A stretch of 64,000 bases of DNA, taken from the NCBI RefSeq assembly GCF_013315695.1, contig NZ_CP054353.1; one strand, 5' to 3'. The stretch is from Escherichia coli (GTDB taxonomy: Bacteria; Pseudomonadota; Gammaproteobacteria; Enterobacterales; Enterobacteriaceae). The position numbers and the translations under genes were made by a program. The notes under the pieces are model-generated. The model saw only the letters and a program-made list of their open reading frames with translations. It did no database searches and had not been told where the DNA came from. Below, piece by piece: positions 52,749-56,471 of this stretch. How positions within the stretch are numbered: the first letter of the stretch is position 1; the number at the start of each line of letters is the position of its first letter.

Positions 52749-53522
52749 ATGTCAGTACCTCTCATTCTGACCATACTGGCGGGGGCAGCCACGTTTATTG
52801 GCGCGTTTCTCGGCGTTCTCGGGCAAAAACCCTCGAACCGCTTACTGGCGTTTTCGCTAGGATTTGCGGCGGGGATCATGTTGCTCATCTCATTAATGGA
52901 AATGCTTCCTGCCGCATTAGCCGCCGAAGGAATGTCACCTGTGTTGGGTTATGGAATGTTTATCTTCGGTCTGCTTGGCTATTTTGGCCTGGACCGCATG
53001 TTGCCACATGCGCATCCGCAGGATTTAATGCAAAAATCGGTGCAGCCGTTGCCAAAATCGATCAAGCGCACAGCCATTCTGCTCACTCTCGGCATCAGTC
53101 TGCATAACTTCCCGGAAGGGATTGCCACCTTTGTCACGGCGAGCAGCAACCTGGAGCTGGGCTTTGGCATCGCACTGGCCGTTGCGTTACACAATATTCC
53201 TGAAGGTCTGGCGGTTGCAGGCCCGGTTTACGCGGCAACGGGGTCTAAACGCACCGCGATTCTTTGGGCGGGGATTTCTGGACTGGCAGAAATTCTTGGT
53301 GGTGTGCTGGCGTGGTTAATCCTCGGTAGCATGATTTCCCCGGTGGTCATGGCGGCAATCATGGCGGCGGTTGCAGGAATTATGGTGGCGCTCTCGGTTG
53401 ATGAATTAATGCCGCTCGCCAAAGAGATTGACCCTAATAATAACCCCAGCTATGGCGTACTATGTGGAATGTCAGTGATGGGATTCAGTTTAGTGCTGCT
53501 ACAAACGGCGGGAATTGGTTAA
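52749..53522 (+). CDS. zupT: ZIP-family zinc transporter
   Basis: 257 aa from [10 protein letters not shown]...; AAGGAG RBS. Confidence 0.9.
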
Positions 53523-53579
53523 AAGCAACATCAGAAGTTGTCCAGCGCATGGACAACTTCTGCCAGCTTCACTAAAGCC

Positions 53580-53750
53580 TTATTCTACCTTTTCGGCTGT
53601 CTCTTCTCTCGTACTGTTTAAGTATTTGTTCCGCGCTTCAAGCAGTGCGTCTCTGTCCTGGCGAAACGCCCGACAATAACGTTTCAAATGCAGGAAATAA
53701 CCCACAACAACAAGAGCAATCAATACAATCCAGTACCAGGCGATAAACAT
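53580..53750 (-). CDS. hypothetical small membrane protein (56 aa from the ATG)
   Basis: Single predicted TM helix (FIAWYWIVLIALVVVGYFL); AAGG before the ATG at 53750; the track ORF starts at an upstream TTG. Confidence 0.35.
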   Translation of the reverse strand: MFIAWYWIVLIALVVVGYFLHLKRYCRAFRQDRDALLEARNKYLNSTREETAEKVE

Positions 53751-53940
53751 CCTTTTACCCTTAATATTTAACAATACTAAACATTTAGCGCATAAATTTC
53801 ACATATCCTTTTTCGGATATATTCATATGGTCGCATAATAACGGAACAATTATATGATTTTGATCATAATGAAAAAGAATGCCTGATATTAATGAAATTT
53901 TCTCATAGAAAGAGAAGCGGAATTAACATCTTGCTTAGCA

Positions 53941-53980
53941 GGGAAAAATAAAAACCGAAGCCTGCTACAACTTCGGTTTC
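53941..53980 (-). terminator. ribB rho-independent terminator
   Basis: Hairpin aaccgaag...cttcggtt followed on the minus strand by a T-run. Confidence 0.5.
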
Positions 53981-54011
53981 TTGATTAAGGCAGTAAATTA
54001 AGCAGCGGTTT

Positions 54012-54665
54012 TCAGCTGGCTTTACGCTCATGTGCCTGACGGTATGCCACCAGGTCTTCAATAGTCACGAGCGCCATATTGTGTTTATTGGCAAACTCAA
54101 TGCACTCTGGTGCACGCGCCATCGTGCCATCGTCATTAGTCAGCTCACACAGCACACCAGCCGGTTTAAAGCCTGCCAGCGTCATTAGATCAATAGTTGC
54201 TTCAGTATGACCGCCACGCGTCAGTACTCCACCTGCCTGCGCGCGAAGTGGGAAAACGTGGCCCGGGCGATTCAGATCAGAAGGTTTTGCGTCATCGGCA
54301 ATCGCTGCGCGAACGGTCGTAATACGGTCAGCGGCAGAAACACCGGTAGTCACACCTTCAGCCGCTTCAATGGTCACGGTAAAACCGGTGCCATAGGCGC
54401 TGGTGTTATTTTCTACCATCATTGGCAGATCGAGTTGTTTACGGCGATCTTCAGTAATGCACAGGCAAACAATACCGCTACCGTGGCGAATGGTCAGCGC
54501 CATCTGCTCAACGGTCATGGTTTCTGCCGGGAAGATCATATCGCCTTCGTTTTCACGGTCTTCATCATCAAGCACCATTACACCGCGTCCTTCACGCAGC
54601 GCAGCCAGTGCATTTTCAACACGTTCGAAAGGCGTACCAAAAGAGGAAAGTAGCGTCTGATTCAT
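54012..54665 (-). CDS. ribB: 3,4-dihydroxy-2-butanone-4-phosphate synthase
   Basis: 217 aa. Confidence 0.95.
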
Positions 54666-54699
54666 GGTAAAAAAACCTCACTAAAATTATGGTTACCAG

Positions 54700-54935
54700 A
54701 ATCAGGGCAGTCTTAGGAGTGGCGGCATATAGCCAAAATAACGTGAGCGGGTCCATGCCCGACAGAATCGTTACTCTCTCCCATCCGGACTCTAACCGTC
54801 GGCCCCGGAATTACACCGGATCTGCTGTCCTTTGAGTTCGCACCCAAAGCGCTCGCGGGCTTTCAACTGAGTTGATTTACCGCCGGTGGGGAATTTCGCC
54901 CCGCCCTGAGAATAAGCGGATTCACTATAACGCTA
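54700..54935 (-). promoter_or_regulatory. FMN riboswitch (RFN element) in the ribB leader
   Basis: Minus strand carries GGGCGGGGCGAAATTCCCCACCGGCGG and the downstream GGATGGGAGAGAG-type conserved segments. Confidence 0.8.
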
Positions 54936-55038
54936 ATGATTAGCGGCAGCAACGCATAGCTTCACATAATTCTGGTTTATGACTTACCCTTATCGCACTA
55001 CAATGGCACTCAACACCTATCAGTACAGGGAAACTACA

Positions 55039-55338
55039 ATGATTGACCCGAAAAAAATTGAGCAAATCGCTCGCCAGGTTCACGAATCAATGCCTAAAGG
55101 AATCAGGGAGTTCGGGGAAGATGTGGAGAAAAAAATCCGCCAAACCCTACAAGCGCAGCTGACACGTCTCGATCTGGTAAGCCGCGAAGAATTCGACGTT
55201 CAGACGCAAGTCCTGTTACGGACTCGTGAAAAACTGGCGTTACTGGAACAGCGCATCAGTGAACTGGAAGCGCGCAATAATTCGGTAGCAGATCTTCAAT
55301 CTCCTCCGGCTATCCCGCCTATTGATAAAGCAGAATAA
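55039..55338 (+). CDS. ubiK: ubiquinone-biosynthesis accessory factor (BMFP family)
   Basis: 99 aa from [14 protein letters not shown]...; coiled-coil. Confidence 0.75.
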
Positions 55339-55343
55339 AGCAA

Positions 55344-55372
55344 CACAAAAACGGGCCAGACGGCCCGTAATA
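55344..55372. terminator. bidirectional terminator between convergent ubiK and glgS
   Basis: Hairpin acgggcc-aga-cggcccgt. Confidence 0.45.
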
Positions 55373-55573
55373 TCAGTGTTCTAATTCAAGTTCTCTGGTT
55401 TGCATCATTTGTTGGCAATACCAGGCATAACGTGCGCAAAACCAGGTTCTATGTTCTTCATCCATGTTACCAGTAACGGCCAGAATATCGACCGGGCGAC
55501 CTTCTGCGTGCATTCTGGCAAAACTACGCGCCAGGAAATCGAAATTATTTAAAGAATTAAGACTATGATCCAT
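55373..55573 (-). CDS. glgS: surface-composition regulator GlgS
   Basis: 66 aa from [13 protein letters not shown]...; GGAGG RBS. Confidence 0.85.
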
Positions 55574-55841
55574 AAGCACATCCTCCGGTTATCGCATACC
55601 TTTTAAGGCCATATGCTTTTTCTGATTTCAGTATTCACCAATCAGTGTAGTGCCTTTAAACATAACGTGCGTAAATATATTGTCCCCGATCACACTTTTT
55701 AGTGAAAAATAAAAAACCATATTAAAAGACTTTCTCTTCCAGAACTTCTCTAACATGTGTTATTATTAACAAAGATAAATGTAAGCAAGGAAACTATCAT
55801 AAAGTAAATATTGCGTCACTAAATGGACATTGGAGTGACAT

Positions 55842-56471
55842 ATGATTTTATTCGCCGACTATAACACCCCTTATCTTTTCGCTATTTCCTTTGTACTGTT
55901 GATCGGCCTTTTAGAAATTTTTGCGCTTATCTGCGGTCACATGCTCTCCGGTGCACTTGATGCACATCTTGACCATTATGATTCCATAACCACAGGTCAT
56001 ATTAGCCAGGCACTTCATTATCTCAATATCGGAAGATTGCCAGCTCTCGTCGTTCTTTGCTTACTGGCTGGTTTTTTTGGTCTTATTGGCATCCTGTTGC
56101 AGCATACCTGCATCATGGTCTGGCAATCACCACTCTCGAACCTGTTTGTGGTTCCTGTCAGTTTACTGTTTACGATTATTGCGGTGCATTATACCGGTAA
56201 AATAGTTGCGCCCTGGATTCCACGCGATCATAGCTCAGCTATTACAGAAGAAGAATATATTGGTAGCATGGCGTTAATTACCGGTCATCAAGCCACTTCA
56301 GGTAATCCCTACGAAGGAAAACTCACCGATCAATTTGGCCAAATACATTATTTACTACTGGAGCCTGAAGAAGGAAAAATTTTCACTAAAGGAGACAAAG
56401 TGTTAATTATTTGCCGACTTTCTGCAACTCGATATTTGGCGGAAAACAATCCCTGGCCCCAAATATTGTAA
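55842..56471 (+). CDS. yqiJ: NfeD-like inner membrane protein
   Basis: 209 aa; N-terminal TM helices; precedes the flotillin-like yqiK. Confidence 0.8.

Follow-up and report, generated by a model that had tools for sequence, protein, structure and literature searches.

The 64,000-nt window analysed here, a stretch of Escherichia coli contig NZ_CP054353.1 (assembly GCF_013315695.1), contains ribB (54012..54665, minus strand) and, divergently oriented, ubiK (55039..55338, plus strand), which encodes a ubiquinone biosynthesis accessory factor. Both genes were identified with NCBIfam equivalog models (TIGR00506, 287.7 bits, for ribB; NF047835, 150.7 bits, for ubiK), in agreement with RefSeq, and the gene context given in the preliminary description, which placed a riboswitch in the ribB leader next to a divergent ubiK, was borne out. 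A terminator scan located an intrinsic terminator for ribB at 53950..53981 (minus strand), with a 13-pair stem followed by a T run. The enterobacterial small RNA model STnc240 has a match overlapping this terminator (53943..54013, minus strand; 29.1 bits, gathering score 55), dismissed as sub-threshold and most likely just the ribB terminator. Between ribB and zupT there is also a small ORF (53580..53750, minus strand), annotated in RefSeq as "protein YqiD", which matched no NCBIfam family.

The region between the two genes carries a complete FMN riboswitch aptamer (RFN element) on the minus strand, as had been read from conserved segments and proposed for checking by a covariance-model scan. 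In the Rfam covariance-model scan, RF00050 matched 54769..54917 (minus strand) with 120.9 bits, relative to a gathering score of 66.2, and the alignment spans model positions 1-138 of 138 (E = 4.3e-29 in a local scan of 53500..56000; 1.1e-27 in the whole-window scan). A score of this size is well outside chance expectation. Three matches reached their gathering scores in the 64-kb window, that to RF00050 being one of them. An AdoCbl-II match inside the aptamer (22.3 bits) is below its own gathering score and was dismissed. Elsewhere in the window there is a full-length match to SIB_RNA (RF00113; 58384..58533, minus strand; 142.2 bits), which represents a Sib antitoxin in the Ibs/Sib family of type I toxin-antitoxin systems, and a match to the ES173 small RNA model (RF02753; 9928..9991, plus strand; 99 bits, gathering score 90).

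The FMN aptamer comprises nt 1-149 of the leader and forms helices P1 to P6, and the RefSeq "FMN riboswitch" feature converts exactly to the same interval. In the Rfam consensus structure, the 5' strand of P1 is nt 3-10 (54908..54915, minus strand) and its 3' strand is nt 141-148 (54770..54777, minus strand), the latter also lying within the 5' strand (nt 141-149) of the published anti*-P1 helix (PMC11571811). The sequence matches 65 of the 66 highly conserved (upper-case) positions of the RF00050 consensus, the exception being a U-to-C change at nt 20, in a loop. On the strength of its score, its six helices, its intact core and its location before a riboflavin gene, 54769..54917 belongs to the FMN riboswitch family.

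Orthologous leaders were collected by a pattern scan for the aptamer 3' core, with loci picked by exact match to aptamer nt 116-141; the conservation of that stretch is therefore by construction. The matches listed comprise 23 Enterobacterales loci and one from Vibrio; below, "24 Enterobacterales" denotes these 23 plus E. coli, and "25 orthologues" denotes those plus Vibrio. Among the matches listed, each of the 23 Enterobacterales loci is followed by ribB and preceded by a divergent ubiK, and the Vibrio locus shares ribB only. Across the 25 orthologues the aptamer helices are 98.5-100% paired (98.5% for helix 1), apart from one three-pair helix (alignment columns 90-92/134-136) that is 66.7% paired, the third model pair being non-canonical in 25/25. 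One aptamer helix shows compensatory CG-to-UA and GC-to-AU changes. For the aptamer together with the sequestering stem described below, 97.2% of pair cells are paired, versus 35-55% in slid controls.

FMN-like aptamers with altered ligand specificity are known, such as the subtype 1 and 2 RNAs of Clostridioides, and the FMN model still recognizes them (PMC6298564), so that a score on this model is also what such a variant would give. These variants, however, replace a ligand-contacting conserved G with A and adjoin transporter or efflux genes (PMC6298564), whereas the core nucleotides here are intact, with no G-to-A change of the variant type (assessed at Rfam consensus positions), and the downstream gene is ribB. 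FMN binding has moreover been measured for an RNA of identical sequence (PMC11571811). The probability that this aptamer is such a variant is vanishingly small, and we treat it as a canonical FMN sensor.

The sequence from the ubiK ATG to ribB +30 (407 nt) is 100% identical to that of K-12 MG1655, and K-12 leader experiments consequently apply here without qualification. The K-12 MG1655 ribB FMN riboswitch, whose leader RNA is known as SroG, does not differ in any position from the copy at 54769..54917; the flanking genes on the ribB side are alike, as is the RefSeq annotation in other strains. A 501-nt query spanning this locus is matched at 99% identity or better by 5425 of the 5426 complete E. 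coli genomes, and O157:H7 and other strains are 100% identical. The ubiK-ribB leader region is absent from one of the 5426 genomes and present in two copies in another, and one of its 5428 placements is plasmid-borne. On the ubiK side the two chromosomes differ: after ubiK, K-12 MG1655 has ygiL, a yqiG interrupted by IS2, and additional genes, whereas in the window ubiK is followed directly by glgS (55339..55372, then 55373..55579). ubiK itself has 99 codons here and 96 in K-12, which suggests that an insertion/deletion junction may fall at the 3' end of ubiK.

To place the 5' end of the ribB transcript, we used the leader numbering of PMC11571811, which follows Winkler 2002 and Hollands 2012. 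Thirty origins were tried against the landmarks of that study (the C175 pause, G176, U181, and GG at 164/165, i.e., at -11/-10 of the pause), and the sole origin that fits sets +1 at G 54917 (minus strand), with the AUG at +253; this base is G in 24/24 Enterobacterales. The full leader would then be 54666..54917 (minus strand). The preliminary description was right that the leader is long, but its estimate of about 270 nt gives way to 252 nt by the published numbering.

Upstream of this base lie a -10 element, TATAGT (54924..54929, minus strand; identical in 22/24 Enterobacterales at -12..-7), and, 17 nt upstream of it, a -35 element, TTGCTG (54947..54952, minus strand), of which TTG is present at -35..-33 in 22/24 Enterobacterales. 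The assignment of +1 to 54917 rests on the published numbering together with this promoter footprint, and is thus a probable position. The SroG 5' end reportedly mapped by Vogel et al. in 2003 falls on this base as well.

A generic consensus promoter scan detected neither the ribB nor the ubiK promoter, because the -35 elements match at just three of six positions (as TTGCTG does when set against TTGACA), and phylogenetic footprinting of both promoters was used instead. On the ubiK side, the footprint consists of a candidate -35 block, GTTTAT (54975..54980, plus strand; identical in 14/24 Enterobacterales), and a candidate -10 element, TACAAT (54999..55004, plus strand), which conforms to TAnAnT in 22/24 Enterobacterales and in most of the 24 lies 31-38 nt before the ubiK ATG. 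By their conservation, these two blocks are taken as a candidate ubiK promoter. The Kim 2012 start-site supplements contained no match to ribB, yqiC or the coordinates, and a SELEX paper lists nothing but nearby sigma-S sites in this region.

The ribB core promoter is 87-115 bp from the ubiK ATG, in keeping with the earlier suggestion that it must sit within about 100 bp of the ubiK start. The back-to-back arrangement that had also been suggested is likewise supported by the position of the candidate ubiK promoter, which does not overlap that of ribB: some 94 bp would separate the predicted start sites of the two genes, with 22 bp between the -35 hexamers. On the ribB strand, at about 52-59 nt upstream of ribB +1, ACCAGAAT is complementary to AUUCUGGU (nt 216-223); the site is 54961..54973, reading AATTCTGGTTTAT on the plus strand, and includes an 8-nt stretch complementary to the sequestering strand AUUCUGGU. 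As a functional pairing this complementarity is probably a coincidence, since only ATAAAC(C) (GTTTAT) is conserved and the site is outside the ribB transcript; the conserved portion is the candidate ubiK -35 block.

The distance from the 3' end of the aptamer to the ribB AUG is 103 nt, and the same layout occurs in the 24 other species among the matches listed. In this expression platform, a hairpin with a 13-bp stem is predicted by ViennaRNA; the stem pairs nt 213-225 with nt 248-261 (54657..54670, minus strand), with U254 bulged, and buries the AUG (54663..54665) and the next two codons. The Shine-Dalgarno core, GAGG (nt 239-242; 54676..54679, minus strand), 10 nt before the AUG, sits in the apical part of this predicted sequestering hairpin. 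The 5' strand of the stem belongs to a switch segment, GCCCUGAUUCUGGUAA (nt 210-225; 54693..54708, minus strand), of which nt 210-216 could alternatively pair with aptamer nt 9-15 (UCAGGGC; 54903..54909, minus strand) in a 7-bp duplex, making nt 9-15 the proposed FMN-free partner of this segment. The interval highlighted in the preliminary description, 54700..54935, holds the whole aptamer; at its upstream end it runs 18 nt past +1, into the -10 element, and at its downstream end it leaves the last 34 nt before the ribB start codon uncovered, so that the Shine-Dalgarno sequence and the stem's 3' strand fall outside it.

The switch segments are far better conserved than their surroundings. The surrounding leader diverges among the 25 species and is anywhere between 242 and 361 nt long, whereas nt 210-224 are invariant in 25/25, including Vibrio, save for A216G in four; stated as motifs, GCCCUG[A/G]UUCUGGUA and, in the 3' strand of the stem, UUACCAUGAAUCAGA are invariant in the 25-species alignment, Vibrio included. 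The sequestering stem is 99.7% paired in the 25 orthologues, with 11 of its 13 pairs free of variation, its 3' strand being also under coding constraint (Met-Asn-Gln). The competing helix 9-15:210-216 (UCAGGGC/GCCCUGA) is 100% paired in 25/25 sequences, and the energy predicted for its duplex is -12.0 kcal/mol. A216G, at the sole variable position of the sequestering stem, keeps both the G-U258 and the U9-G216 wobbles, and hence both competing helices, as expected if nt 216 serves two helices.

A further helix described for this leader, anti*-P1 (141-149:175-183; PMC11571811), has as its 3' strand CGUUAUUUU (nt 175-183, including the pause sites C175 and U181; 54735..54743, minus strand), and is 84.4% paired in the 25 orthologues. 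No double (compensatory) changes were found in the expression-platform helices of the 25 orthologues, the helices showing conservation rather than covariation because they are almost invariant. On comparative grounds, the platform helices are backed by strong conservation and by mutual exclusivity, not by covariation. Helix 9-15:210-216 would be an anti-sequestering helix, and it may correspond to the published anti-P1 stem.

The sequestering hairpin is present in all states predicted by thermodynamic folding, and no ON state in which the AUG is free came out of equilibrium folding, constrained or not; enforcing 9-15:210-216 still left a 9-bp remnant over the AUG. The ON state is accordingly not explained by equilibrium folding alone, and for it we rely on the co-transcriptional model from the literature. 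The authors of PMC11571811 likewise regard the structures adopted by the platform as unsettled.

Experiments on RNA of the same sequence complement the aptamer, gene context, K-12 identity, promoter footprint and switch-segment conservation established here, in that they have demonstrated that FMN is bound, that it protects both P1 and the sequestering strand, and that control depends on Rho. RNase H probing gave Kswitch values of about 57-206 nM for binding of FMN to the nascent ribB leader, where nt 137-146 (P1) and nt 218-227 (sequestering strand) become protected (PMC11571811). RNA polymerase pauses at nt 175/181 and at nt 247-249 (54669..54671, minus strand) bound the FMN-sensing window, and in the FMN-free state both ends of the aptamer are engaged in alternative helices (PMC11571811). 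In a rho R66S mutant, ribB control is completely lost in RNA polymerase occupancy, with a Rho termination score of 3.1 (PMC5499598), and when the 223 bp preceding the ribB RBS are deleted, both ribB and riboflavin production are derepressed (PMC9885008). The riboswitch has also been labelled by a flavin probe in live cells.

Taken together, these data almost certainly identify the locus as the E. coli ribB FMN riboswitch, with a leader that is also the source of SroG and a mechanism as follows. Transcription would start at G 54917 from a sigma-70-type promoter (TTGCTG, 17 nt, TATAGT), and nt 1-149 would adopt the FMN aptamer fold with its six helices. At high FMN, the ligand would bind the nascent aptamer between the pauses at 175/181 and 247-249 and lock P1, leaving nt 213-225 free to pair with nt 248-261; this pairing would occlude the AUG and the initial codons, and the apical part of the hairpin would contain the Shine-Dalgarno sequence. 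Ribosomes would be excluded, a C-rich leader would be exposed, and Rho would terminate transcription in the leader or in early ribB. When FMN is scarce, the 3' strand of P1 would first pair with nt 175-183 (anti*-P1), and the freed aptamer nt 9-15 would then capture nt 210-216, weakening the sequestering stem such that ribB is translated and transcription reads through.

Hollands and colleagues reportedly obtained, in 2012, FMN-dependent termination within the leader in vitro, using purified Rho and no ribosomes. By terminator scan, the segment that separates the aptamer from the AUG contains no canonical intrinsic terminator. The platform does contain a C-rich, G-poor stretch, nt 161-220 (54698..54757, minus strand), marked as a candidate rut region by base composition. 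Its C/G ratio is 1.6-1.9 in 40-nt windows, versus 0.3-0.9 in the 3' half of the aptamer. This richness in C is suggestive of a Rho loading region, within which the rut position would be approximate, and PMC11571811 locates the rut and termination sites in the expression platform.

Rho termination might instead be an indirect outcome of blocked translation, with untranslated ribB mRNA as the substrate rather than a leader rut exposed by FMN. Direct and indirect models have both been described, and the indirect one was shown for thiM (PMC5499598); the predicted stem over the AUG and first codons would equally block translation, and the C-rich nt 161-220 are not clearly hidden in the predicted FMN-free fold. 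Set against this, PMC5499598 and PMC11571811 both attribute to Hollands et al. 2012 a direct route, dictated by the riboswitch, for Rho to reach a rut in the ribB platform and, again as that work is cited there, termination sites mapped within the leader. Probe 184 moreover reports that nt 184-193 are more accessible with FMN (PMC11571811). We therefore regard the indirect route as unlikely, if still to be taken seriously, and retain direct Rho access to the FMN-exposed leader in the proposed mechanism.

The SroG RNA bears on what the leader is for. It was reported as a leader-derived RNA with its function stated to be unknown (PMC7456131), which would fit a stand-alone, trans-acting small RNA as the main product of the locus, with cis-regulation of ribB secondary. 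However, the aptamer is linked to ribB in every listed match (24 Enterobacterales and Vibrio), and deletion of the leader derepresses ribB in cis (PMC9885008). SroG also has no known target or trans phenotype. This reading is thus highly improbable, and cis-control of ribB by FMN is preferred as the role of the leader.

The two divergent promoters invite a separate consideration. A back-to-back arrangement of ubiK and ribB promoters, with conserved hexamers and a short spacer, is found in all 23 other Enterobacterales among the matches listed. Ubiquinone ring hydroxylases are flavin-dependent enzymes, which would offer a plausible rationale for a coupling of flavin and ubiquinone supply. That the promoters couple the two pathways transcriptionally, through shared occupancy or supercoiling, or alternatively that SroG has some trans function, is nonetheless a long shot.

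The presence of an FMN riboswitch before ribB is confirmed by our analysis: the element is real, was rightly interpreted and was already known. It is an ordinary case: public genomes already annotate it, and its sequence is the one studied experimentally in K-12. The ribB riboswitch controls riboflavin supply and is an already recognized target for antibacterial flavin analogues. What is added here is the mapping of published features to window coordinates, a leader length of 252 nt, and footprints of the two divergent promoters obtained by comparing species.

Among other riboswitches, that of Bacillus subtilis ribD is the same as ribB in aptamer family (RF00050) and ligand, and both sense FMN kinetically, assisted by pausing, during transcription (PMC11571811); the output differs, B. 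subtilis ribD using an intrinsic terminator/antiterminator, whereas E. coli ribB combines start-codon sequestration with Rho. In Brevibacillus reuszeri, locus L074 (2540..2950, minus strand) has two complete tandem FMN aptamers upstream of ribD (114.7 and 109.2 bits), separated by a terminator-like hairpin; in Bacillota, rib genes preceded by two or three FMN riboswitches have already been described (PMC12452182). The TPP riboswitches of E. coli thiM, thiC and tbpA, unlike ribB in aptamer and ligand, resemble it in mechanism: they act on translation and lower mRNA via Rho, and their ligand-sensing window is bounded by a pause near the start codon. Within this shared scheme, Rho control is described as indirect for thiM and as direct for ribB (PMC5499598).
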